Positions 3,680 to 49,574 of a DNA stretch of 64,000 nt are shown here, piece after piece (the first letter of the stretch is position 1; every line of letters starts with the position of its first letter). The DNA comes from Dictyostelium discoideum (Eukaryota). Where the stretch lies: positions 2,176,001 to 2,240,000 of the forward strand of contig CM000151.3 in assembly GCA_000004695.1 (NCBI GenBank), written 5' to 3'. The notes under the pieces were generated by a model. The model had not been told where the DNA came from, made no database searches, and was given only the letters and a program-made list of their open reading frames with translations. A program made the position numbers and the translations under genes.

Positions 3680-3894
3680 TTATTTACCACCAAATTTATT
3701 AAGAAGTATTTTATTGCTATGAATCTTTTTTCTTAACATGAATGCTGCAATTATTAAAGCACAACCAACAACAGGTACAGTGACAGCAACTGGAATTAAC
3801 CAAGGTTTTTTATTTTCTTTGCCACATGAATCTGATGACTTAAAATCTGAATTAATAATAACTGAAAAATCTAAAAATAAAAAAAATCAGTATA

Positions 3895-3925
<31 letters not shown>

Positions 3926-6900
3926 GATAAAAATTTATAAATACCTGGATCTAATAAACATTGATTACAATGAGGCATATCAAGTGAAATTAAAACTTTT
4001 TTATCATCTTTTGAAATTATTTTAGTGATTGTTGTTGTTGGTCTACCATCTGATAACATTTTATCTTGGAATCTACCATAAAGTGTTTTACCATTTTTAC
4101 TAATTTTAAGATAATTAACATTTTGTAAATTATTACTATTTGGTGATGTTTCTACATTTGTATGTTCACTATCTATACAATTATTAATTTTACCTTCAGT
4201 AGTTGAAATATCAGATGACATTTGGATTTGTAAAGTGTTTAGATTACTTTTATAATTCCAATTTGAAACTGATAATGAAAGTTTAAAACCATCTTTACTA
4301 ACTGTGAATTGATTACCTGCAAATGTAAATTCTTTACCATTGTTACTTTCAATATTTTCAATTGTCATTATAATGGTTGCATTATTAACAATTTGAGAAA
4401 ATGTTGAAATTAAAGAACCTGAACCAGTTAGGTTATTTGTAGTATTTGTAATTTTCCAACCACTTTTAAGATTGATTAAAGAGTTTGGTACTTGATTATT
4501 ATTTAAATCAATTTCAGCAATTGAATCAATATAAATTAAATATACAGTATCTTCATTTATAATGGTAGTTGTGCCGTCGGGATTTACCTTTGTTTCAGTT
4601 GGTGGTTTTGATTCACCAACATCCTTTGTTAAACAATCAAGACCAATGAAACCAGAATTACATTTACATTCACCATTTGAATTACAATTACCATTACCAC
4701 TACAATTATTTAAACAATTAATAGTTGATTCTGAATATGGATAAATTGAACCAGACCATGTAATATTATTTTGAATGATTTCAATATTCTTTAAACCAAC
4801 ACCTGGTGGGATTGAAATAACTATTGTTTCATTATCAATTGAGTTTATTGGTATTATTTCATTATCAAATGAAAATTGGAAATATTTATGAACATCACCG
4901 AAAAAACCTGATATTGAAATGTTACCACCAGAAGTGGATGGTACCTTACTTGATGACGATACATAATGATATGGAATTGTACAAATTTCATTGTCTAAGC
5001 TTGTCCATTTATTATTACATGTACATTGTTTAGTAGTTTCATTACAATATCCATTTTCAGGTTGAAGGTATGGATTAATTAAACCGGACCATGTTATACC
5101 ATTTTGGGTTACTTCAGTTTTTACAAAACCGAATCCTTTACCAATTTGAGCATAGATTGTATTTGAATTAATTGAATCTATAAGGGAGCTAACACCATTA
5201 AAGGAAACAGAAATACCCAAATGAATATCACCAAACCAACCATATAATTTGATTGCACCACCAGATTCGACTGGAACTTTGGTTGAGTTTGTTACATTAT
5301 GAATTGGGATTAAACAATCCTCACTAGTCCATTCTTTAAAACATGCACAAACACCCATATGATCATTACAAATTCCATTTGAATTACAAGTTGGATTTTT
5401 ACATGGAACAGGAGTATGAATTAAATTAAAGTAGGTTGTTGTACTTTTATCTTCAACCATAACTGTAAATGATTTATTACCATAGTCAACAATTGGATAA
5501 TTAATATCACAAATTATTTTATAGAATGTAGTTGATTTAACAATACAATCATTATTACCGATCTTAACATTTACAACTGATTTATCATAAGAATAATATT
5601 GACCAGTGATTTCAAATGTTGCATTATTTTGAATGATCGTATCGATTTGTGGTGCATTACCTGCGATTGAAACTGTGAAATTAATTCCTGGTATTAAAAA
5701 TCTAATTTGAATAATATCATATTGATTACTAGCAACACTAAAATATCCTGAAAAACTATCATTTAAATTATTTGAACTAAATTTAATTTCAGGATATGTT
5801 ACAATATTATCTAAATTTGTTCCAATATTTTTTCCAATTAATGTAACTCGTGTTGATGATAAATTTAAAAATTTATAAACATTTATTTGACCTTTTTTTT
5901 TTTTTTTTTTTTTTTTAAAAAATATAAAAATAAAAATTAGTTATTTTTTAAAAATTATATAAAATTAGTTAATTATTATTCTATTCAAACTTACCATCAT
6001 TACAAGTTGAAGTTAAATTATAATTTGAAAAATTATTACCAACTAATCTTCTTTGATATGTTGGATCTTGTAAATAACAATAATAGCAATCTGGTAAAGA
6101 TCCTGATAATAAATTATTTGAAACATCTAAACTAATTGAACACCATGATTCATCGATACTACCAGTTAGTTTGTTATTACTTAAAGTAGCAGTTTGAGTG
6201 AATGCTGATTTTTGTAATGTATCTTTTACAGATGGAAGATTACCACCAATTTCAGAATTTGATAATGAAAATTGTTGGGCTCTTTGAAAAATTGATAGAT
6301 CTGGTAATGTTGAAAAGTTTCCATTTTCAACTATAAAGTTACTACATGTACCTGTTGGTAATTTTGAAAATGGGAAATTACCATTAATATTGAATTTTTT
6401 ACCAGCATTTTTTAAAGAAAATGAAACAAGTGTTTGATTACTATTTGATAAATCAATATAATCAGCTGGTGGACCCCAATTTCCTTGTGTAAAATATCTA
6501 CATTTATTATTATAATTATTATTTTTATTATTATTATTCAAGATAACTTTTTGAAAAAAAAAAAAAATTAAATTAAATAAAAAACTTACATAGTACCCCA
6601 CATTGGATTAATAATATTAGAAAATTCAGTTGGGAAATTTAAAGGATTTGAATTTGAAAAACCCATTCCTATGTAAGTTAATTTACTAAAAGATAGAATG
6701 TTCACTAATGAAGATTGATTAAAATCATTTCCTAAATTGAAGCTTAAAGTCCTTAGAAAAGAAAGTGATGATACATCAGGTATATTTTTAGTATTAAAAA
6801 ATAATGATGAGAGTTTATTACCACTTTGATCACCATCAATTTCAATATCACATATTGCTCCCAAAACAGTGCTTTTTATTTATTTTTTTTTTTTAAAAAG

Positions 6901-8423: not shown

Positions 8424-10820
8424 TTATTTTAAATTATTCATTCTTTTTTTTTCTAAATTTCTTAATAAAAATGCAATTATTAAAGCACAACCAATAACAG
8501 GTACAGTGACAGCAACCGGAATTAACCAAGATTTTTTATTTTCTTTACCACACGAATCTGATGATTTAAAATCTGAATTAATAATAACTGAAAAATCTAA
8601 AAATAAATAAAGCAATAAAAAATTAATATGAAAAAAAAAATATAAAAAAAATAAAAAAAAAAATTTATAAATACCTGGATCCAATAAACATTGATTACAA
8701 TGAGGCATATCAAGTGAAATTAAAACTTTTTTATCATCTTTTGAAATTATTTTAGTGATTGTTGTTGTTGGTCTACCATCTGATAACATTTTATCTTGGA
8801 ATCTACCATAAAGTGTTTTACCATTTTACTAATTTTAAGATAATTAACATTTTGTAAATTATTACTATTTGATGATGTTTCTACATTTGTATGTTCACTA
8901 TCTGTACACTTATTAATTTTATCACTTTCAGTGGTTGAAATATCAGATGACATTTGAATTTGTAAAGTGTTTAAATTACTTTTATAATTCCAATTTGAAA
9001 CTGATAATGAAAGTTTAAAACCATCTTTACTTACAGTAAATTGGTTACCAGCAAATGTAAATTCTTTTCCATTATTACTTTCAATATTTTCAATTGTCAT
9101 TATAATTAAAACATTATTAATATTTTGATAGAAATTGGTAATTGATGAGTTAGAAGTACTATTATCAAATTTCCAACCATTTTTAAGATTAATTAAACAG
9201 TTTGGTACTTGATTATTATTAAAATCAATTTCGGCAATTGAATTAATATAAATTAAATATACAGTATCTTCATTTGTAATGGTAGTCGTACCATTAGGAT
9301 TTATTATTACATGAGTTGGTGGTGTTGGTGACCCTGAATCTTTATTTGTTGAACAATCAAGACCAATATAATTATCATTACATTTACATTCACCATTTGA
9401 ATTGCAGTTTCCATTACCACTACAATTATTTAAGAATTTAATAGTTGATTCTGAATATGGATAAATTGAACCAGACCATGTAATATTATTTTGAATTATT
9501 TCAATACTCCTTGAACCAACACCTGGTGGAATGGTAATTACTATTGTTTCATTATCAATTGATTCAATTATTACTTGTTTATTATTTAATAATACTATAG
9601 GATCATCATGAACATCACCAAACCAACCTGATAAGGTAATATTACCACCAATGTTTGATTGTACAGTACTCGATGATGATAAATAATGATTTGGTATTAA
9701 ACATGGAGAGTATGGATTTAACCTTGTCCATTTACTATAACAATAACAAGACTTGGTTATATCATCACAATAACCATTGATTATTGTTGTGTTTAATAAA
9801 GATAGGGGAAATGTTGTATTATGTCCATTAACTTTTAAATAACCTTTTGAAGAAATACCACCATATACAAATATAGGAATATTAATTTTACATATTATTT
9901 TATCAAATGTACAATATTCAACAATACAATTTAAAATTTCTTTACCATTATCAATTTCAACACTAATTCCAGATTTATCATATGAAAAGTATTCATCATA
10001 AATAAAAATAGTGTCAGCCCCAAATGAATTTGCATTTACTATTGGTGGGCTATTTTTCAATGAAATTGTGAAATTAATACCTGGTACTAAAAATCTAACT
10101 TGAATAATATCATATTTCCATTTACAAATATTCCACTAAAACTATCATTTAAATTGTTTTTTTGAAAAACTATTTCAGGATATGTTACAATATTTATTAA
10201 ATTGAATCCAATATTTTTTCCCATTAATACAACTCCAATATCATTAACAATAATTTTATAAACTGATATTTGTTATATATATATATAATTATTTAAATTA
10301 GTGTTGTCAATTATTTTAAAAAATAATGAAAAAAAAAAACAAACATACCATAGGTACAAGTTGCATTTGTATTGTAATTTGTAATTTATTAAAAGAATAT
10401 TATGATTGATACATAGGGTCATTTTGATAACAATATTTACAATCTGGCAATTGGCCAGTTAATAAATTATTTGAAATATCTAAACTTATTGAGCACCATG
10501 ATTCATTGATGAGAAAATTATTATTTAATGAAGCAAATACAGTAGATTTTGATTTTTGTAGTGAATATTTTACAGATGGAAGATTACCACCAATTCCTAA
10601 ATTTTTTAATGAAATACCTGTACAAGATTCAAATAATTTCATATCTGGTAGTTTGGTATAATCCATAAATAATTCCAAATGAAAGACATGAATTTCCAGG
10701 TAATTTTATACCAATTGGTATACTTCCATTTATATTAAAATAGCAACAATTGTTGTAGGGAATTTTTTTTGAAATTTCGCTTTCTAAACGGCAGTGAATT
10801 TTTACACTAAAATACACTGT
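8424..10820 (-). pseudogene. Receptor B: frameshifted tandem copy of receptor A (3' two-thirds only)
   Basis: The region is about 85-95% identical at nucleotide level to receptor A at the same offset (about 4.75 kb). A 1-nt deletion (ccattttact at 8821-8830 versus ccatttttac at 4101-4110 in A) splits the reading frame into the overlapping ORFs 8424..8789 and 8747..10060. Further indels lie at 10085-10200 relative to A 5690-5800. The LRR exon (10400..10817) has internal stops relative to A. Homology to A ends at about 10740-10820. Confidence 0.6.
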
Positions 10821-17771: not shown

Positions 17772-25313
<7,542 letters not shown>

Positions 25314-26088: not shown

Positions 26089-26240
26089 ATGAAAAGCTTT
26101 CATTTAATTTTTTCATATTTTTTTATTTCATTTATAATTATAAATAAAGTATACAGTATGTTTTAGTTTAGAAAAAATAATAAATAAATAAATAAATTCT
26201 ATTCTATCCATTATTTCTTTTTGATTTGTGGAAAAACTTA

Positions 26241-26280
<40 letters not shown>

Positions 26281-26675
26281 TATTCAAAGGTACAAATACA
26301 ATTACCCCCTTAATCTCATCAAAAATAATAAAAAATGAATATCCACATTTAATTAAAAATTGTACATATAGTTATTTATTAGAGATTCCAAGTGGATCGA
26401 TATCCAATATTACCAGTATAATATGCAATTATAATACTTTCCACACTCCTAGTTATCAAACAATTGGAAAAAATTTAAATGGGGATTATTCAATTTTATT
26501 TTCAGATATTAGCTTACCGATTGGTTCACAACAATTTAAAGTGATAATTATAGATTCAGAAGTAATTTCAAATGAAATTACTATACAATTAGAATCACCA
26601 TGTTCAGGTAATTTAATTTTTATTTATTAATATAATAAATAAGAAATATTATTAACTTTTATAATTTAATAAAAA

Positions 26676-26727
<52 letters not shown>

Positions 26728-29700
26728 TAGAATTACCATCATTAGTTTCACCAATTAATAAAAATCCAAGCGCAAATAAATGGATAATGACAAAATCAAG
26801 ATTATTAAATCAAATACCTACATTGGCTGTTTATTTATCAAATTTAAATGGGTTCATATATCCAACAAATAATAATAACCCACAAATAAATAGTTTATTG
26901 ATAACTTCGAATGGATTTATACAAATGGATAAAAACACATTTTTATTTAATTATTATTATTTATCGTTTTTAGGCAAAACAGATGATATAAAATGGTTAT
27001 ACTTTAATAATTCAATTATTTCTGACTCAATTATGTTTAAAAGCCCAGTTTCTGAAAGTATGTATATATATTTTTTTTTTTTTTTTTTTTTTCCAATTTT
27101 TATTATTTATTAATAATTATAAAAAAAAATATTTTAAAAAATTATTAGACTTTGGCAAATCAATGATAAGTGTATCTAGTTATCCTCAAGCGATAGATTG
27201 TAAAAATTTTAAAGTTTGTTATTTGGTTATAAATTCAACAATAGCTTTTGTGCCACTTTTGGGATTTATAGAGGATAGTACTGGAACAAGAGATGCAATG
27301 AATATCTATCCACTCTATGGAAGCCCAAATAATTCAAAACATATAGCCTATTTTAATTTTAATGATGATAATAAAAATGTTTATTCAGAATATTTTGTAA
27401 TGGGTTACTCTTCATATGAAAGTGTACAGAAATATAGAGCAAGTAGAAATATTACTAGTTTGGTTCCACCAGCGATTTCAAATGTTAAATCCATTCAAAT
27501 ATCCTATGCTCATTATGATCCATATTCATTAACCATTGCATATTTTGACAATGATAATCAAAGTCAAGTAACAAGTTTAGCTTTTGGTCCTTTCATTCAA
27601 TATGATAGAGTAACCTATCCGTTTGGCTTTTTAAAAGGAAATTCAAAAAACTATTCCTATGCCATTGGAATGGTTCTTCCAATATATTCTGATTTGCGAT
27701 CTTATTCTTTTATACCTCCCAGTGGAATAACCATTAAAATGGTGAGTTCAGTATATACTGGCGAAATATCAACACCAATTATATCATTGGTATCATTCAT
27801 TCCAAAGGTTGGTGATGGTTTAAAAACAATTTTAAGAATAACAGCGTCTGATAAAGTTTTTGGTTTATTTTATATGGAAACTCAACCATCAGGAATTAAA
27901 ATCATTGGAAGTGATTTGGTTGATGGTAATAAATTTAATGGTACCTATGAAAAATTAATTGATTTTTCAATTTATCCACCAATAACTTCAATTACAGCTT
28001 ATAATTTATATAACGCAGAATCAATTACTTTCACTATGAATAATCATCAATATCCAAGTAATATTCCATCAATTTCAGATATAACATTATTTAAATTTAA
28101 GAAACAAACGGTAGACCTTTCAACTGACAGTTTCATCAATACAATCTATATGAATTACTCAAATGCAAATATAAATTATAGACCAGGTTTTAAATTAATA
28201 ACAACATCAGAGATTGCAAGAGATTTTCAATGGTATCGTAATTATGATTACCTTGAATGGGATGAAACACTTCAACTTTTTAAATTAGACTTTTATATGC
28301 CACCAAGATTATTTACAGGTATTTTAGAGTATAGATTTAATTTTGCTTATGTAGATTTAGATCCAAATTCTTTATCAAATTTGTTAGTAGATAATTCAAT
28401 AAATGATAATAACGCAATACTTTCAGTTACTTGTGATTTTGCAGATGAAATGCCACCAATTGTAACAAAAATAAAATCTAGTGCTCAATCTTTTGATTTA
28501 TTATGGGATATTACATTTAGTGATGATATCAATGGTATTGAATCAATTAATGTTACAATTTCTAGTGAGTTTGATTTAGTTGGTGAAACCTTTACATTTT
28601 TCCCATCACTTGATGATAATAATAAATTGGTTACAGTAAGAATAAACAAAACAATTTATCCATATTCAAAGAGTCAAACTTATAGAATTTCAGAGATTGC
28701 AACACGTGATACAAGTGGACATTATGCCAATAGTACCTTTGAACCAAGCTTTCAAAATATTCTTAATCCATGGAGATTAACATATGATGATATTTCAAAT
28801 TTTGATTTTACCATTTCCAATGAATTAAATATTGAAGATAATGTACCAATTATTAATTCAGTTTTATTATCAACAAATTCTATTGATATTTCTACAGCAA
28901 ATAGAGAGTTAACTGTAACATTCAGTGTTTCAGATGATACAGGTTTTTCAAATAATAATCCAATAGTTTATTTTCAAACTAGAATGCTAGAAACTATTAG
29001 TGTAGTTGCAAATAAAACCAATTGTTCATCAGTTACTACTTGTAATTATCGAGTCGATCTACAATTTCCATTTTTATTTGGCTATCCAGAACCAATTTTA
29101 TGTTCAATCTATAGAATTGAAGATGTTTTTTTCAATTTTAATAGTTATAATTATCATAAAAATACATTAATTCATACAAGTAATAGTGTGTTAGAAACTA
29201 AACCAATTATTGAATCAACATCATCAATTACTCGAAATGGTGGTGATCTTATATTGAATGGTCATTGGTTTGGAATTGATGAAAATGCAATAACCATTAT
29301 GATAAGATATCTTGATTTACCAAATGAAAATATTACATCATCTTCATTTATTTATCAATTTGGTAGTGAAATTAAATTTAAAAAAATTAAAGCAAACAAT
29401 GGTGATTCAGTTTATATTAGATTAAAAGTTGGAAATCAACTTTCAAATGAATTTAAAGTTGTACCAATTCCATTAAACAATTGTCCAAATAATTGTAATC
29501 AAGATAAAGGGCAAGGTGTTTGTCAATCGGATGGTAGTTGTAAATGTTCAGATTCTAAATGGTTTGGTGTTGATTGTTCAAAACAATTTCATTACATTTC
29601 ATCGGTTTTACCATCAACAACCTCTGGTGGTGAAGCAAGTTTCATAGGTCTTTTTAGTGATTCACATGATAATATTTCAATTTCAATTGGTGGTTTAGAT

Positions 29701-30660
29701 TGTCCAATTTTATTAAATACTTCAAGTCTAATTAAATGTAATGCATCAGCAGGTATTGGTATTAAAAATGTAACATTGACACAAAATGGTTATACATTCA
29801 CTGCTCTTGATATTTATAAATATATTGAAATCAGCACATCTTTACAATGTCCAAATAAATGCTCAAATAATGGTATTTGTAATAGTACAACAGGTATTTG
29901 TAATTGTAAGATTGGTTTTGGTTTATATGATTGTAGTGCTTTAATTAATCTAGATAATGGTAATGGTGGAGGTACAAATACAACAATTGATACAGGTTCA
30001 AGTTCAACTAATTTCACAAATTCTGAAACCAATTTTCAAATTTCAATTAAATCATTAATAGAGGTTGATATTAATAATAATGTTATTAAATCATATTCAT
30101 TATTAAAAAATTGGTCATTTAATAAAACTGATAATGAATTTGAACCAAATAAATATATATTAAAACAAATTTTAAATAGTAATAATTCATCAGAATCAGA
30201 ATCAGAATCAAATGATAAAAGTTTTATAATTACTTCGATAATTGAAGAGATTAAAGATAAAAATGGTAAAGAATTTATTTTTGCAGGTTCAAGTTTTATA
30301 GTTCCAAGTGGTTCAATTAAATTTACAATTTCAATTTTAAATTATACATATCAAAGTAATTTAAATTCATTGAAATTGGAATTAATTTCATTGACTGATA
30401 ATAATAATAAAAGAACTGATTGTAATTCTAAATCTATTGAAATCGATACAAGTAATACGAATAATTTATCAACATTTAATTATATTAGAATCTCAAGGAA
30501 TAATAAAATTTTAGAAGGTAGATTTATAAATAAAGTTATGTCAGATGGTAGATCAACATTCTTAACTTCAACTACTAGAAATGATTCAAATTCAATTATA
30601 ACAACTTTAAATTTACCTCATTGTGTATCCGAATGTATAATTGATCCAGGTATGTTTATA

Positions 30661-30697
<37 letters not shown>

Positions 30698-30935
30698 GAT
30701 ATTAACTTTTTTTTTTTTTTTTTTTTTACATTTAGACTTTTCAATTTTAATTTCAAATGATTTTAAATCTAGTTGTGAAGATAATTCTCGAAAATGGTTT
30801 TTGCCAGTAGTAATTACTGTACCAATTTTAGGTTGTTTTTTATTGTTTGTTTTAGGTGCAATAATCTACAAGAAAAGTACAAGTGTAAAAGTTTTTGTTC
30901 ATGGTACTAAATTAAAGAAAATTAATGCTTTTTAA
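26089..30935 (+). CDS. Receptor C: signal peptide, N-terminal beta-rich domain, IPT/TIG-like repeats, EGF-like modules, TM and tail. Five exons: 26089..26155, 26290..26607, 26731..27057, 27149..30649, 30736..30935
   Basis: Exon 1 encodes MKSFHLIFSYFFISFIIINKVY followed by a GTATGT donor. Exons 2-3 carry the NCTYSYL and CSG motifs and end with the same CSG|GTAA donor as receptor D. The large exon has EGF-like segments (CPNNCNQDKGQGVCQSDGSCKCSDSKWFGVDC; CPNKCSNNGICNSTTGICNCKIGFGLYDC) and a C-terminal region homologous to A/B (KEFIFAGSSFIVPSGSIKFTISILNYTYQSNLNSL..GRFINKVMSDGRSTF..LPHCVSECIIDPG|GTATGT). The last exon encodes the TM FLPVVITVPILGCFLLFVLGAIIYKK. All phases are consistent. Confidence 0.7.
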
Positions 30936-31198
30936 TAATAAAAAAAAGAAAAAGAAATTCAAAAATAACATTAAAAAAAAAAAAATAAATGTTTTTCCCG
31001 TCACAGTATTTTTAAAAATTAAAACACTTTGTTGACCCCCTGATATGGTGTAATTTCGAAATATTGCAAATTTGGTTGGGTTTTACAATATCTTAAAAAT
31101 AAATGGTATTATGGAAATGAAAAAAAAAAAAAAATTAAGATATTTTTTTTTTGGAAAATAAAAAAAAAAATCAGATATTTACAAAAACAGAGTAAATA

Positions 31199-31231
<33 letters not shown>

Positions 31232-31278
31232 TGTTAAATTTTTTTTTTTTTTTTTTTTTTAACTAAAAGAAGATCAAA

Positions 31279-34200
31279 ATGAAAAATAATGTTTTATTAA
31301 TTATCTTAATATTTTCTCTTTTTTTATCAGTTAATTGTAATTTATTATTATTTATTTTTTTTTTTTTTTTTTTTTTTATTATTCAAAATATATTAACAAA
31401 AATAAATTAATTACAGCATTAGACACATTATTATTAGAATCAAAACAATTAATTTCAAAAACTTATTCAATTAATTCAAGTAATTGCACGTATGAATATC
31501 TATTTGTATTTGAAGCATTTGAATTTTCTTCACTATCAAGCTCTAATCAAGTTAGCTATTATGGAGGAGATTCAATTGTAAATAATCAAGTTTCAATAAG
31601 AGTTTCTAATATATCAATAAGGGTTGGTTCAATGGATATGTATATTTCAATTCAAACTAAATCAAATAAAACATTTAATTTATTTATTTTATTAGACGAA
31701 TCATGTTCTGGTAAGTTAAAAAAAAAAATAAAAAAAAAATAAAAAAATAAAAAAAATTATTTAAAAAACTAATAATAATTAATTATAATTAAAAAAAACA
31801 AAAGAATTACCAAATAATCTTCAACCAAAATATTATTTTAATAAGTGGATAAATATTAAATCAAGATTATTAAAAGATCCCCCAAAACTTACGATGTATT
31901 TTGAAAAATTAAATGGTATTGGTAACCCTTCAAATTTTTTAATAACTGGAAATTTAATTAAAAATACATCTACATTCTATCAGAGAGAGTTTGAAACAAA
32001 GATATTGGAATTTCCCTATACTTATACAACTGGAATTAATAATATTAAAACTGTTGAATGGTATCATTTCAATTCAATTGGGAATATAGTCGAATCAAAA
32101 GTATTCTCACTCCCTGTTTCTAGAGGTAAATTTAAAACATTTTAAAAAAAGAAAAAATATATATATATATTAATATTTTTTTTTTTTTTGATTCAATTAA
32201 AAATAGCACCAATTGTTTCTTCTTTTATTCATTTTCCAAACACTCTTTATTGGTCAATGCATGATAATATTATTTTTACATTCAATGTAACAAATACTGT
32301 AGATGAATATGTATTCGTTGGATTTAATTCATCAAATGTCAATCCAAACTATACTGATGCAATGAACATGTATCCAATTTACGGAAATCCTAAAAATGGT
32401 CAATATATGGGTTTTATAAATAATTTCAACGATTATGAAAATATTGAAACTTATTGGAGTGTTAATTGTTATGATTTATCAAATTCTATTAGAATCTATT
32501 ATACAAATAATAGAACTCTTTCATCATTAAAAATTCCACCAACTTCAAATATTTCCACTTATTCTTTATCTTCAAGACCATTCCAAACAAAAGAAAAAAC
32601 ATATTATATTGGAGAATATTATTTTCCTGTTCAAAGTAGTCCAGTTACAAAGTTTTATGTTGAACCATTTATTTTTATAGAAAAAATTAAATTCCCATTT
32701 GGTTGTACAAATGGAAATTCATTCAACTACACATATATTTTTAATAATTTAGTAACACAATATGTACCATTATCAAATTATCAAGTTATTTTTCCATCGA
32801 ATGGATATACTTATACCGACTATCCAGTTTATAATTCAAATACATCAAAACCAATTATAGAATCATTTTCATTTACACATATCGAAGGAATGAAAGCAGT
32901 ATTTAGAGTAACAATCGTTGATAAATATATTGGATTTTCATATGCAACTACATCTCCTTCAAATGTTAGAATTACAACAAGTGATTTAATATCAGGCAAT
33001 CAATATAATGGTACCTATGAAAAATTAATTGATTTTTCAAATCGTCGTCCAATTGCTTCAATAACAACATTTAATCAATTATTATTATCGTCTATAACTT
33101 TTGTACCATTAGAACATCAATTTCCAACTGAACTTCCACTAATTAAAGACATTACAACTTTTAAATTTGCTTCGTCATTAATAGACCTTTCAACCGATGG
33201 TTTTTTGAATACAATCTATATGAATTATTCAAATTCAAATATAAATTATAGACCAGGTTTTAAATTAATAACAACATCAGAGATTGCAAGAGATTTTGAA
33301 TGGTATCGTAATTATGATTACCTTGAATGGGATGAAACACTTCAACTTTTTAAATTAGACTTTTATATGCCACCAAGATTATTTACAGGTAATTTAGAGT
33401 ATAGATTTGGTTTTGGTTATTATGATTTAGATCCAAATACTTTATCAACCTTATTAGTAAACACTTCAATTAATATGAACAATCCAGTACTTTCAGTAAT
33501 TTCAGATTATGCTGATGAAATGCCACCAATTTTAATTGATTTTACTGTTCCTTCTTTTGTTATTGTAAACCCAACTCAAACATCTGTAATTAGTATTATG
33601 CTTACATTCAGTGATCCGATTAATGGTATTGAATCAATTAATGTAACCATTGTAAGTGAATATGATCTAATTGGTGAAAAATTTACTTTTTACCCTCCAT
33701 TAAGTAATAATAAAAAGGTAATTTTTTCAATTGAAAAGATAATTGAAGAGGGTTTTTGTAAAAATCAAACCTTTAGAATCTCTGAAATTGCAACTCGTGA
33801 TACAAGTGGGCACTATGCAAATAGTACCTTTGAAGCCTCTCACCAAAATATTCTTAATCCATGGATTCAACAATTTTATAATTTCAACTCAATTAATTGT
33901 ATAGTTAAGTGTCAACAAGATGATGATAATATCCCACCAAAACTTTCAGAATTTAAACTATCAAAAACAACAATTGATATTGGATCAATGGATAGAGATT
34001 TAATTGTAACATTTTCAGTTTATGATTTAGACAATAGAATATTTTTAAAAGATTCGCCAACAATTTATTTTACTACAAGCCTTTTTGATCAATTTTCATT
34101 GAAAGCTGAACTTTTTTCATGTGTAAATGATAGAAAAAATTGTACATATATTACACCTGTCAACATTCCATTTATGTTTGGGTATCCTGATCCAATTATT

Positions 34201-35697
34201 GTTTCAATCTATGGTATTCAAGATATATTTTTCAATTTTAATGGTTATAGTAGTAAAGAATTATTGAAAATGAATTTTAATCCAGTAATTGAAATTGAAA
34301 CAAGTAGAATTCCAATTATTGAAACCAATGGATCAATAATTACAAATCAAGGTGGTGATAATTTTTTAATTGGTCATTGGTTTGGTGATAATTCATCAAT
34401 TGTTCAATTAGCAATTATTTATTGTAATAATACTGAAATAATTAAAGATTTCATTTATAAAACTGGTAGTTTAATTAAATTCAAAACGATTAAACCAACA
34501 AATTATTCAATTAATTTTCAAGTTTCAGTTGATGGAATTTCCTCTTCAATCTATTCAATTCTACCTATTGGTGCTTCATTTAGTGATAATTGTATTTATG
34601 TAGAACCAACTAATTCACCAACTGATTTACCAACTAATTCACCAACTGATTTACCAACTAATTCACCAACTAATTCACCAAAAACTTGTTTATCGAATTG
34701 TAGTGGTAATAAACAAGGATATTGTAATAATGGAGGTTGTATTTGTTATTCACCATGGATTGGTTCGGATTGTTCCTCAAAAATTATTGATGATATAAAC
34801 CCACCAATCATTAAGAATGATACATCAACAACAATGACAACAAATAATACAAATAATGAAATATATTCAAGTTTAATTTCAATTATATCATTAAGAGAAC
34901 TTAATTTTGTTGGACAGGTTATACAAACTTATAATTTAACAGATTGGACTAAAATCAATAATTCAAACTATACTTCATCAACAAGATTCCAATTTAAAAA
35001 TGAAATTTTAAATCTAAAAACAATGAACAAAACTGAAATAAATGCTTATATTGAATATTTTGAAAAAGAAAAGAATATTACATTTGGTGATCAAGAATTT
35101 AAAATGATGAAATCATCAATTAAATATACAATTGAAATTGGTTCATATGATTTTTCATCTAAAATTAATAATCTTCAGTTGGTAATGTCTGCATCTTTTA
35201 TCTCATCTTCAGAGGAAGATGTTTGTTCAAATAAAGAATTTGGAAATTCAACAGACGATTATTCCAATTATTTAAAAATTCAAGTTAATGATCATTCTCT
35301 CTATGGTAGATTTATTAAATATGCAATTGTTGATAATAGGACAAGCTCTATAATTAATGAACAATTAGATTCATTAATGAACCCAATTTCAACTTCAAAT
35401 AAACAACAAACTTTTATTGGTATAACTTTACCAAATTATGAAAATTCTGTCGTTATTGATCCAGATTTCCAATTATTACTTGATATTGGAACCACTGCTA
35501 AAAACAATGACAATTCAATTTGTAATCATAATTCAAATAATCATGGGCTCAGTTCTTCACAATTGGCTGGTATAATAATTGGATCAATTTGTTTTTTTGC
35601 AATTATTATTGTTTCAATAATCTATACAATTTTAAAAAAAAGAAAAAATATTCAGTTCTTAATCAAATTAAAGAAAATTGAAAAATATAATAATTAA
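31279..35697 (+). CDS. Receptor D: tandem paralogue of C with the TM encoded inside the large exon. Four exons: 31279..31336, 31417..31710, 31805..32125, 32207..35697
   Basis: The signal peptide is MKNNVLLIILIFSLFLSVN followed by GTAATT. Exon 2 ends at ..DESCSG|GTAAGT and exon 3 ends at ..SLPVSR|g GTAAAT. The large exon shares with C the blocks GTYEKLIDFS and YRPGFKLITTSEIARDF.WYRNYDYLEWDETLQLFKLDFYMPPRLFTG, has (PTNS/PTDL)n tandem repeats and EGF-like spacing (CLSNCSGNKQGYCNNGGCICYSPWIGSDC), and ends with the TM AGIIIGSICFFAIIIVSIIYTILKKRKN. All junctions are phase 1 and consistent. Confidence 0.7.
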
Positions 35698-46633: not shown

Positions 46634-49574
46634 TTAATCTTGTATTGATTCAGGTGGTATTGGTTCATTTAATCTTTTTTGAATTTGTTTTCTTTTTTTA
46701 TATTTTTTAATATAAATTATAACTAAAACAAGTATAGCAATTAAAAAGAAAAGACAAGGTATTAAAATTGCAGGTATTAACCATTTTTCAACATGAGAAT
46801 TATTGTTTTGATCGGAAGTACCACCACCACCACTATTATTATTATCACTTCTAAATTGATATTTATCGGGAATTGAATATTTAAATACATCAGCATCACC
46901 AGACTGACCATTAACATTAATTTGAATTTGATGATCAGATCTTTCTATTGAAGATTTATTTAATGATTCAGATAATGGTGGTAAATAACAAGTTAATGAG
47001 TTTGAATCAGTGATATTAACATAGATACATTGTTGAAGATTTGCAATTGTAATATTTATTGGTTTTGCCAATTGTGATCCGAAAATTGTAATTAAACCAC
47101 CAGTTGTTGGTGAAACTGATGTTGAATTTATAATTGTTGGTGACATATAAGAGAAGGTTAAACCCTTTGGGTTACCTTGAACCAAAATATCATTAATTAA
47201 AATTGAAACTGAATAATCACCACCTGATCCAGGTGGCATTTTACAAGTTATTGATGTAAAATGTTTTAAATCTAATTGTTGAATATCTTTACAAATTTGT
47301 GACCCAATTTTAATATTTAAATGATTGCCATTGTTGTTGTTGTTGATAATTTCATTTTCATTTACAAAATTATAATTTAATAAATTTAAATATTTACCAA
47401 TTATTGTAACAACACCACCATTAACTGATAATTTTGAAGGTATTGAAGTTATGAATGGTATAATTGGTAATTGAAGTTGGTTTGATTTTTGACCACCAAC
47501 TTCAATGAAAATCATTGAAGTTTTTATAGAATCCGGTATTTGAAATTGAATTAATTCACTTGAATTTGTTAATACTGGTAGTGGTGTAACAATGATTTTA
47601 CCATTGATTTCATTGTTAATATAAATGAAAACTTTTGAATTTAATTCACCCAAATTATTACCATTAACAATTGCATTATCAAAAGATTGATAAATTTTTG
47701 AAATGGTTGGGGCTTGATAAGTGAAATTTGTGAAAATGGCAGGTTTGGAATCACCAATTTCAAGTTTAAACCATAACTTTTTACCAATACCTGGTGAGAC
47801 TTTACAATAAATAATTTCACCAGGATATGATGAATCCTCAATTGGATCATGACAATTTAATTGATTATTATTATTAAAATTTTCAATTGAAAACTTTGAT
47901 TTCAATGGTTTACCATTTTCACTTGATAAATATAACCCATTACCTTTAATTGTAATTAAACCACCTTTAGTAGTTGGTGAACTAATTTCTTTAATTGATA
48001 CATTTATTCTAATCGGTATTGAAGAGTTATCGTTACTACCATCAATTGATACTGTTAATATACCAGGTCTTGGTATTGGTGAAATGTAAAGTATTGTACT
48101 ATTAACTATAGTTATAACCGATTGATTTAATTTAATACCATCTAAATAAACTGACATATCATTATTCATAAAATATTTACCAATAACTTTTAATTTACCT
48201 TGTTGTTCAATTGATGTTGTTGATAGTAATGTTGGTGGACCACAATCGAATATTGTTGAAGAAGGAGGTTGTCCAATTGGTATTGAAATACTAGTTGGTG
48301 GTGTTGTTGCACCATTTGAATTTTTATCCCAAAATTTAAATGCTCTACCACCACTTGTATATTGATAATATAATGGTGAATTCATTTGAAATTCAATATG
48401 GTTGATTGAGCTTGACAATTTTTGACCATATTGTGAAATTGGTGTTAGTTGTGAATAGGTTGTACTATCTAAAAAGTAACCATTGAATTTATAAGTACGA
48501 TTAGATGTTGGGCCCTCAATTGAATTTATAGTGATTGGTGGATAACCTTCCTTCAATTGACCTTGACCACAATAATTATCTAAACATAATGTATACTTAA
48601 AATCTCTTGTAGGACAAAGTCCAACAAGTCTATTAAAATCAGTTATAATCAAATTTGTGCTATTGACATAGTCAATTGAGATTTTATATGGAAATGGGTA
48701 ACAACTTGGCATGAATGTTAATAGTTTTCTATTTGTGCCAAAATTTATGCCAATAAACTCAATTTTAGTAGCACCTTTCTCAATATCCATTGATAACACT
48801 CTTGCAGAATTTATTATTGGTTTTGGGTAAGTTGCTTTGTATGGTGTTTGCTGTGAATTTTGATGATCACCACCAAAACTGATTAAAACATACCCAAAGC
48901 CAGGATCCATTGTCCAAGTTAATAAACCTGGTTGATTATAGATTAAACTATTTTCATATTTTAAATTTCTAATTTCTTTAGGTTTACCTGTGATATCTGT
49001 AATTGTCATTGGGGTGCTATTGGCGTTTGAGCCATCATAATATCGAATCTTCAATGAAGAAGTTCCATTAGTATATAAATGTGAATCATCGATTTCAACA
49101 GGAAATGAAATTGGTATCGATATCTTTTCATCAAGAACTCTGTTGGTTATTTTATACAATAGTGTTCCTTTACATTCTTGTTTTTGAAAATCGGTATATC
49201 CTGTGAAATCAAATGTTGAATTACAACTATTACTACCATCCAAATTCTTTATAATACGATTTGATCCAAATCCTTGAATCGCTCCATTATATGTACATTC
49301 TAAATTAACCAAACATAATAAATCAATATTTATTAAATCATTTGAATTTGGTAATATTGTTATAAATACTATTGATTTTAAATAATTAATTTTACTTTCA
49401 ATTTCACCTAAAATAGAATAAAAATTAATAAATAAATAAATAAAAAAATATTAATACTATATAAATATATATTTTTTTTAAAAAAATTAAGTAATTTAAA
49501 AATTATTTACAATTTATACTATATATAAATAATGAAATCAAAAATAATAATTTTAATACTATAAATGATTTCAT
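46634..49574 (-). CDS. Receptor E: signal peptide, multiple IPT/TIG-like Ig-fold repeats, TM and short tail. Two exons: 49511..49574, 46634..49368; about 932 aa
   Basis: Exon 1 encodes MKSFIVLKLLFLISLFIYSIN followed by t and a GTAAAT donor. The acceptor AG at 49369-49370 (caatag) is the only one compatible with the 892-aa ORF frame; the ttttag at 49407-49412 is out of frame. The body has repeated modules ending in G-rich strands (..LSVNGGVVTIIGKYLN.., TKGGLITIKGNGL.., TTGGLITIFGSQL..). The TM is WLIPAILIPCLFFLIAILVLVIIYIKKYKKRKQ with a short cytoplasmic tail. Confidence 0.7.

Follow-up and report, generated by a model that had tools for sequence, protein, structure and literature searches.

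The locus analysed here, within a window of 64,000 nucleotides of Dictyostelium discoideum DNA (the whole stretch that was analysed), raises the question of why two tandem paralogous genes, referred to as C and D, share one stretch of about 200 nucleotides almost unchanged amid otherwise diverged sequence. The original prediction offered two answers, namely ectopic gene conversion between the tandem copies or selection acting on the nucleotide sequence itself, for example through an embedded RNA or regulatory element. Our results show that this patch, unlike the remaining gene, has a shared recent ancestry in the two copies, and that it is very probably the trace left by interlocus (non-allelic) gene conversion between directly repeated paralogues lying about 5 kb apart.

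Gene C starts with a signal peptide (from 26089), contains a large exon from about 27148 to 30649 and ends in an exon (30735-30935) encoding the transmembrane helix and the stop codon. Gene D likewise possesses a signal peptide, a transmembrane helix and a stop codon of its own, with exons at 31279-31335 and 31410-31709, the remainder running from 31804 to 35697, and a short intron near 32146-32187. The AX4 reference model DDB_G0273015, for which we found no mention in the literature, probably merges both genes into one. The ComC supersandwich domain (PF22933, ComC_SSD in Pfam) was detected above the gathering cut-off of 24 bits in C (289 bits; E = 2.7e-86) and in D (66 bits; E = 4.3e-18), and both type-I membrane proteins have EGF-like modules and, at the C-terminus, one transmembrane helix, as does the ComC (communication mutant C) family of Dictyostelia to which we assign them. 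In PMC4931340 ComC appears among the secreted/transmembrane proteins of development that have EGF domains. Both C and D carry a DUF7743-DUF7035-DUF7034 array and, unlike the ComC-type genes at positions 3871-6601 of the window, have no LRR_ComC domain. The proteins had been called receptors, and by domain content they are indeed ComC-type receptors, although the word itself expresses only a structural inference.

Table 1. Positions in the window of genes C and D, of the near-identical tract and of the two shorter blocks.
Feature	Position	Strand	Basis or remarks
Gene C, ComC-type type-I membrane protein, 1470 aa in strain models	26089..30935	+	domains, gene models
Gene D, tandem paralogue, about 1387 aa	31279..35697	+	domains, gene models
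Very probable conversion tract, gene C	28112..28338	+	left edge 28112-28138, right edge 28322-28339
Tract in gene D, probable acceptor copy	33182..33408	+	alignment, dS, trees
Block 2 in C, exact 31-mer matching D 33010-33040	27940..27970	+	conserved GTYEKLIDFS motif
Block 3 in C, corresponding to D 33772-33831	28681..28740	+	RISEIATRDTSGHYANSTFE motif

As had been claimed, C 28141-28340 and D 33211-33410 are 97% identical over 200 nt (194 identical positions in a gapless pairwise alignment), and their translation agrees with the peptide quoted for them. The maximal patch has approximately the limits given in Table 1, its left edge in C varying among strains, and the core of the tract (C 28138-28338) differs from D at four of 201 nt. 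The surrounding sequence is diverged, as the original prediction also stated, the proteins having 45% amino-acid identity (44.7%) over 819 residues and the nucleotide identity in sliding windows being about 45-65% outside the tract against 97-100% within it. When the whole C region was compared with the whole D region using blastn, low-complexity poly-A/T matches dominated and only the alignment over 27749-29400 was meaningful. The tract is not itself low-complexity sequence, which disposes of the artefact that the prediction had named as a danger to it, and no third copy turned up in the remaining ComC/TIG genes of the window, the prediction having likewise seen none in receptors A and E. At residues identical between C and D the same codon was used in 59 of 60 cases in the tract and in 195 of 279 elsewhere (Fisher P = 1.4e-7). 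Drawing codons independently from the usage of C and D themselves would give 40 of 60 (with an all-match probability of about 1e-11.5), so that the identity of the tract goes beyond chance or codon bias.

Synonymous divergence along the alignment, which had been suggested as a check, is not uniform. Over the 67 tract codons the C/D dS was 0.027 (one synonymous difference over 37 sites), whereas for the other 654 codons it was 0.83, a value near saturation and resting on alignments of diverged sequence; the drop in divergence between the paralogues is hence restricted to the tract in dS as it is in nucleotide identity. Rooted neighbour-joining (NJ) trees containing five outgroup family members, C and D of D. 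discoideum (Dd) and D. cf. discoideum (cf), and the single-copy gene of D. firmibasis (fi) gave ((C_Dd,C_cf),C_fi),(D_Dd,D_cf) outside the tract, D being the outgroup to C and its D. firmibasis orthologue, and (C_fi,(D_cf,(D_Dd,(C_cf,C_Dd)))) inside it, where D nests with C. The site patterns were incongruent in the same manner as the trees, with 17 tract sites uniting all C and D sequences against D. firmibasis and none uniting C and D. firmibasis against D, versus 145 and 305 sites, respectively, elsewhere (Fisher P = 8.6e-9 for the contrast). In our own implementation of a GENECONV-like permutation test, using a strict mismatch penalty and 1088 variable sites, the best C/D fragment was C 28167-28320 (21 variable sites with one mismatch, or 13 with none) and was significant at the permutation floor (P <= 0.0005), and the same test yielded no fragment between D and the D. 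firmibasis gene (P = 0.24-0.73). The dS contrast, the switch in topology, the site patterns and the permutation test all uphold ectopic conversion between the tandem copies for this 200-nt block.

A version of this process in which recurrent conversion keeps the patch identical, selection favouring the same surface of about 67 residues in the middle beta-sandwich module of C and D, seems to us rather unlikely. Were it true, the two proteins would share a surface, for example for a common ligand or co-receptor, with the remaining ectodomain diverging, and this Dictyostelium receptor pair would exhibit module-specific concerted evolution. In the ectodomain, the tract codes for a portion of the middle beta-sandwich module; structure prediction and a fold search located it inside a generic Ig/FnIII-like module, and its ends do not match the domain borders.

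An explanation of the tract by strongly AT-biased codon usage and purifying selection on a protein segment of exceptional constraint, with no recombination at all, is very improbable, although it accounts for part of what we observe. Protein constraint is stronger in the tract than in its surroundings: in comparisons with D. firmibasis dN was 0.06, the lowest in the gene, against 0.31 elsewhere, dN/dS was about 0.13-0.15, as expected under purifying selection, and nucleotide identity reached 85-93% even with this species. Codon bias is strong in this 22%-GC genome and would alone give the same codon at about 67-70% of identical residues. Because of this stronger constraint and strong codon bias, part of the identity of the tract is expected without conversion, and blocks 2 and 3 (see below) are explained in exactly this way. 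The 59 matching codons found in the tract nonetheless exceed the 40 expected, and its synonymous sites are free to change, since the same 67 codons show dS values of 0.43 for C and 0.48 for D (0.43-0.73 over the comparisons) to the D. firmibasis orthologue. The value between C and D lies far below that between C and D. firmibasis in the same codons, which already contradicts an explanation by constraint. In addition, the D. firmibasis gene, which should be closer to C, differs from it in the tract by 12 synonymous and 10 non-synonymous changes, compared to one and three for D, and the topology switches in the tract. Neither is the segment well conserved across the family, being only 17-44% identical to C in 51 other members and no better than other segments, on which ground we also rejected the idea that the tract is an ultra-conserved family motif.

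Still less probable is that D is a young duplicate of C, originated after the split from D. firmibasis and diverging fast except in the patch, whose identity would be residual. Such a history would suit the presence of one gene only at the syntenic locus of D. firmibasis and the fact that D is dispensable enough to look pseudogenised or disrupted in one strain; indeed, D appears dispensable because of both its absence from D. firmibasis and this disruption. The outgroup-rooted trees, however, place D outside the group formed by C and the D. firmibasis gene, and D is equidistant from them in amino-acid identity (44.7% to C and 45.7% to C of D. firmibasis). Outside the tract, where the estimates approach saturation, dS between C and D (0.83) is higher than that between C and its D. 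firmibasis orthologue (0.69), an excess that fast protein evolution would not yield.

Selection on the nucleotide sequence itself, be it for a structured RNA, for regulation or splicing, or for an antisense transcript common to both genes, is scarcely credible. The synonymous sites of C and D are near-perfectly conserved in four genomes, as it would require, but the D. firmibasis copy departs from them at 22-25 of 201 positions, with 12-17 of the changes in the 67 codons being synonymous, polymorphisms segregate within the species inside the tract, and the D copy of strain ACTFIR, which has putative frame-breaking indels, carries a 2-bp deletion there. A search of Rfam over 27800-33700 gave no match at E <= 1, and the predicted fold of the tract was no more stable than that of shuffled controls (z-scores of 0.07 and 0.70 for the + and - strands, respectively). 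The embedded RNA or regulatory element of the original prediction thus finds no backing, and nothing suggests a function of the nucleotide sequence of the tract as such. An assembly artefact, through collapse or cross-polishing between paralogues, is the least credible of all, being only the generic risk of any tandem paralogues with nothing specific to this pair, since the same tract and boundaries, together with strain-specific variants, appear in four independently assembled genomes (the window, L003, L004 and L002, comprising three D. discoideum strains and D. cf. discoideum).

How, then, might interlocus conversion have produced the patch? The duplication giving C and D is very probably older than the split between D. 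discoideum and D. firmibasis, and protein identity between the copies has fallen to about 45% in the time that followed. Once these species had separated, one copy may have suffered a DNA break that was repaired by homologous recombination with the adjacent paralogue as template, replacing about 200-225 bp without crossover; the patch lies in a better-conserved stretch of the gene pair, which would have supplied the homology for starting repair. The repaired copy would probably be D and the template C. Two C-specific substitutions, 28228 G>C (E>Q) and 28322 A>T (N>I), were subsequently fixed before the split between D. discoideum and D. cf. discoideum; two fixed C/D differences are common to all four genomes.

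In the core of the tract, C and D differ within D. discoideum at 4-6 of 201 positions, orthologues differ from those of D. cf. discoideum at 5-9, and any copy differs from D. firmibasis at the 22-25 mentioned above. The conversion thus came after the split from D. firmibasis and for the most part before that between D. discoideum and D. cf. discoideum, because the tract is common to the latter species as well. The event can accordingly be called recent, as it had been, in a relative sense only. Regarding direction, C is the likelier donor and D the probable acceptor on the evidence of synonymous distance: the 12-13 synonymous differences to the D. firmibasis gene over 37 sites agree with the rate between C and that gene (P = 0.08-0.39) and disagree with the rate between D and that gene (P = 0.004-0.012), these being small counts under assumed uniform rates. 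Direction has to rest on such rates and counts because D. firmibasis is single-copy and so provides no unconverted D orthologue. The patch may also have undergone partial re-conversion later, within D. discoideum. Position C 28263 has a synonymous T/C polymorphism, seen in gene C of the strains FIW and FIR and also in gene D of FIR, and the lineage-specific changes of the tract number one in each D. discoideum copy and three and five in the D. cf. discoideum copies (two singletons versus eight; one-sided binomial probability about 0.055). Parallel mutation could be an alternative source of the shared polymorphism and of the singleton pattern.

Two shorter blocks had been put forward as further conversion signatures, and their sequences indicate that they are ordinary conserved motifs instead of conversion tracts. 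Block 2 is 100% identical over 31 nt between the copies, as stated, but its 24-nt core (TATGAAAAATTAATTGATTTTTCA) does not vary among the five sequences, D. firmibasis included, and is made of preferred codons, so that it cannot be taken as a mark of conversion. The high identity of block 3 was also real, at about 87% (8 differences over 60 nt) for a claimed value near 90%. All five sequences retain its motif in the protein. Of the eight nucleotide differences, seven leave the amino acid unchanged, and the C/D dS over 28663-28749 is 1.65; since its synonymous sites are saturated, block 3 has not been converted. The conservation of synonymous sites attributed to all the blocks consequently applies to the first alone. 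Along the C/D pair, the sole contiguous block in which C is nearer to D than to the D. firmibasis gene was 28111-28336. C 28894-28925 was considered as a weak second candidate for conversion and discarded, divergence specific to the D. cf. discoideum lineage being a better explanation.

Interlocus gene conversion between tandem paralogues is classic in the human gamma-globin genes, the MHC, opsins and other duplicated genes, and is often reported to have a GC-biased outcome, of which the C/D patch gives no obvious sign. Genes C and D resemble these cases in having a short, near-identical patch of a few hundred base pairs with diverged flanks on both sides, in a mutual similarity exceeding that to their orthologues only within the patch, in lying in direct tandem a few kb apart and in having the patch in their best-conserved part. 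They are unlike them in their host, a social amoeba with 22% GC, and in a background divergence unusually high for the initiation of conversion (about 45% amino-acid and about 55-65% nucleotide identity overall, locally 75-85%). The patch adds a new case of a familiar process, a real, clean and ordinary event, whose textbook mechanism leaves general understanding unchanged. It provides a clean, well-dated example from Amoebozoa with a natural control in the single-copy sister species, shows that paralogues with otherwise only about 45% identity can still undergo conversion, and will mislead family trees or dN/dS scans if left unmasked.

In the same species, interlocus conversion or recombination has been proposed for the tgrB1/tgrB2/tgrBps allorecognition genes, whose mosaic sequences and intermingling in trees were taken to reflect such conversion (bioRxiv 10.1101/2025.10.22.684067). 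Like C and D, these are clustered paralogues of cell-surface receptors with beta-sandwich ectodomains, although they belong to the IPT/TIG Tgr family, whereas C and D are of the ComC type (DUF7743/DUF7035/DUF7034/EGF/ComC_SSD). In the tgrB genes the process would generate hyper-polymorphism, whereas in C and D it homogenised one patch that is stable across strains. We rejected a tgr-like hyper-polymorphism of C and D, as their divergence between strains is no higher than that of the neighbouring genes, which likewise amounts to 3-5%.

The near-identical patch shared by C and D, two tandem genes for ComC-type surface proteins, is very probably the outcome of gene conversion between them. Comparison of C 28141-28340 with D 33211-33410 gave 194 identical positions out of 200 without a gap, bearing out the original figure of about 97%, and the peak of identity is sharp (onset at about C 28112-28138, end between 28322 and 28339). 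The flanks are diverged, the large exons measuring 45% at the protein level and about 45-65% at the nucleotide level in sliding windows. Synonymous divergence, whose course along the alignment had been set as a check, is not uniform, dS (Nei-Gojobori) being 0.027 in the 67 tract codons versus 0.83 in the 654 others, and residues identical between C and D use the same codon in 59 of 60 cases within the tract versus 195 of 279 elsewhere (Fisher P = 1.4e-7). Codon bias is strong in the D. discoideum genome; if codons were drawn independently from the usage of the two genes themselves, about two thirds of identical residues would be expected to share a codon, and the probability that all of those within the tract match is about 1e-11.5. 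Over the same 67 codons the comparison of D. firmibasis with C shows 12 synonymous and 10 non-synonymous changes (dS 0.43), and that with D shows 13 and 9 (dS 0.48). Synonymous positions within the tract can therefore evolve freely, and the identity between C and D reflects recent common ancestry of the tract alone.

In outgroup-rooted trees of the orthologous loci (see table) the non-tract region yields ((C_Dd,C_cf),C_fi),(D_Dd,D_cf), the suffixes denoting D. discoideum, D. cf. discoideum and D. firmibasis, so that the C/D duplication predates the firmibasis split. For the tract itself the D copies group with the C copies of discoideum and cf., leaving C_fi outside. Site patterns agree: 17 tract sites separate firmibasis from every C and D copy and 0 join the C copies with firmibasis against D, versus 145 and 305 elsewhere (P = 8.6e-9). 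A GENECONV-style permutation on 1088 variable sites, the kind of check originally asked for, identified C 28167-28320 as the best C/D fragment (P <= 0.0005) and no comparable fragment between D and C_fi. The dS contrast, the topology switch, the site patterns and the permutation all uphold conversion as first proposed for this block. Protein searches returned no D-like protein from D. firmibasis, and its loss from that species is presumed, since the rooted tree makes D the older lineage.

Two smaller blocks had been put forward together with the tract. The exact 31-mer is present, at 27940 in C and 33010 in D, but its core (TAT GAA AAA TTA ATT GAT TTT TCA) is the same in all five sequences, including firmibasis, and consists of preferred codons. 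The third block (C 28681-28740, D 33772-33831), first put at about 90% identity, also exists, with about 87% identity over 60 nt as counted from the codon listing; it encodes RISEIATRDTSGHYANSTFE, conserved as protein in all five sequences, and carries seven synonymous differences between C and D (dS 1.65), so that the claimed conservation of synonymous sites holds for the main tract and fails here. Neither block shows a topology switch. We therefore reject both as conversion tracts; by their codons and substitutions they are ordinary conserved motifs.

Over the 201-nt core of the tract (C 28138-28338), the number of C/D differences is 4-6 within D. discoideum and 10 in D. cf. discoideum; orthologues of these two differ at 5-9 positions, and firmibasis stands 22-25 differences from every copy. 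Two C/D differences are fixed in all four genomes, at 28228 (C/G, Q/E) and 28322 (T/A, I/N), firmibasis having the D state at both. The simplest history would be one conversion after the firmibasis split, two substitutions in C, and then the discoideum/cf. split. Small counts hint at a later partial re-conversion within D. discoideum: between 28229 and 28321 C and D are identical in the window strain but have four differences in cf., position 28263 has a synonymous T/C polymorphism that occurs in C of two strains and in D of one, and lineage-specific changes number 2 in discoideum copies versus 8 in cf. copies. A transfer from C (donor) to D (acceptor) is favoured because, with 12-13 of its 37 synonymous sites differing from C_fi, the tract is compatible with the C/C_fi rate and not with the D/C_fi rate (P about 0.01); we infer the direction in this way, as no unconverted D orthologue exists.

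The patch of some 200-225 bp has diverged sequence on both sides and a recent ancestry common to direct repeats 5 kb apart. From what is known of homologous recombination, a break in one copy may have been repaired from the paralogue as template without crossover; unequal crossover would alter copy number or homogenise everything on one side. The locally conserved stretch around the tract plausibly supplied the homology, and the right flank has 75-87% identity. An AlphaFold model of 366 surrounding residues (mean pLDDT 72.6) predicts three tandem beta-sandwich modules resembling Ig/FnIII ectodomains. The tract (model residues 132-198) extends over several strands of the central module without matching its borders, as would be expected if it were left by recombination and not by the exchange of a domain.

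To the left, 28075-28137 holds a dense non-synonymous cluster in C of discoideum and cf. (LFKFKKQT, where firmibasis has TFRFASPL and D has TFKFASSL). An extra cluster at 28126-28137 (GAC A/GGT TTC ATC) is present in C of the window strain and ACTFIW, where C of ACTFIR retains the D-like or ancestral GAT GGT TTT ATG, so that the position of the left tract edge is polymorphic in D. discoideum. At 28894-28925, C of the window strain (RELTVTFSV) is nearer D (RDLIVTFSV) than C_cf (RNITLKFNI), which could be a second micro-conversion; divergence specific to cf. is an equally good explanation, and the signal is not significant.

Against firmibasis, dN/dS is about 0.13-0.15 in the tract and about 0.45 in the remainder, showing functional constraint on the encoded protein segment, which does not account for the nucleotide identity. 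An embedded RNA or regulatory element, the alternative originally offered, is rejected: Rfam has no family matching the tract region, the tract folds no better than shuffled sequence on either strand (z = 0.07 and 0.70), firmibasis carries synonymous changes, and polymorphisms occur within the tract, including a 2-bp deletion in D of one strain. In 51 other family members, collected by an exhaustive HMMER search, the segment shares 17-44% identity with C, which does not exceed the level of other segments and reaches its minimum precisely where C and D agree at 95%; this rules out an ultra-conserved family motif. An assembly artefact is excluded because four independent assemblies contain the tract, each with its own variants.

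The 64-kb window has about 22% GC, poly-Asn tracts and short AT-rich introns, and all its closest proteins come from Dictyostelium discoideum. Because of their shared Pfam domains (DUF7743, DUF7035, DUF7034, EGF-like modules and the ComC supersandwich domain), C and D are classed by sequence as ComC-type proteins and not Tgr receptors. The AX4 reference model DDB_G0273015 fuses them into a single 2785-aa protein, and three newer strain annotations call separate genes; C closes with a transmembrane helix and a short tail before the TAA at 30933-30935, and an AT-rich intergenic stretch of about 340 bp separates it from the signal peptide of D, which starts at 31279. The tract and the DUF7743-DUF7035 region are absent from the window's two other ComC-type genes and its IPT/TIG gene.

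Genes of the window, orthologous loci and indels in D of strain ACTFIR
Feature	Position	Strand	Remark
Gene C	~26089-30935	+	own signal peptide, transmembrane helix, stop codon
Gene D	31279-35697	+	own signal peptide, transmembrane helix, stop codon
GCN2-like eIF2-alpha kinase	18537-25313		one flank of C-D pair
Papain-family cysteine protease			other flank of C-D pair
ComC-type gene	3871-5460 with 5981-6601	-	LRR_ComC, EGF, ComC_SSD domains
ComC-type gene	8747-10060	-	LRR_ComC, EGF, ComC_SSD domains
IPT/TIG-domain protein	46634-49312	-	
D. firmibasis locus	L001 9399-14967		single ComC-type gene, C-like, between GCN2-like kinase and cysteine protease; 65% aa to C, 46% aa to D
D. cf. discoideum locus	L002		C' (83% aa) and D' (86% aa)
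D. discoideum ACTFIW locus	L003		C and D; about 95-97% nt
D. discoideum ACTFIR locus	L004		C and D; about 95-97% nt
ACTFIR D indel	33279 (window-equivalent)		2-bp deletion, within tract
ACTFIR D indel	33055-33143		~77 nt lost
ACTFIR D indel	34579		1-bp deletion
ACTFIR D indel	35550		23-bp deletion

Interlocus gene conversion between tandem paralogues is a textbook process. In D. discoideum the tgrB paralogues are a proposed case (bioRxiv 10.1101/2025.10.22.684067). Our literature search found no paper mentioning DDB_G0273015 and no report of conversion in the ComC-type family, and we thus regard the C/D tract as a new instance of a known process.

Gene D of strain ACTFIR (L004 13082-17374, window 31804-35697) carries several frame-breaking indels and, its frame being fragmented, looks like a pseudogene, provided the assembly is accurate. 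Unlike tgr genes, C and D show no excess of between-strain polymorphism over neighbouring genes. Across 18537-41738, kinase and protease included, nucleotide differences among the three assemblies labelled D. discoideum amount to about 3-5%, far above published diversity estimates for the species, and the strains compared may belong to deeply diverged lineages.
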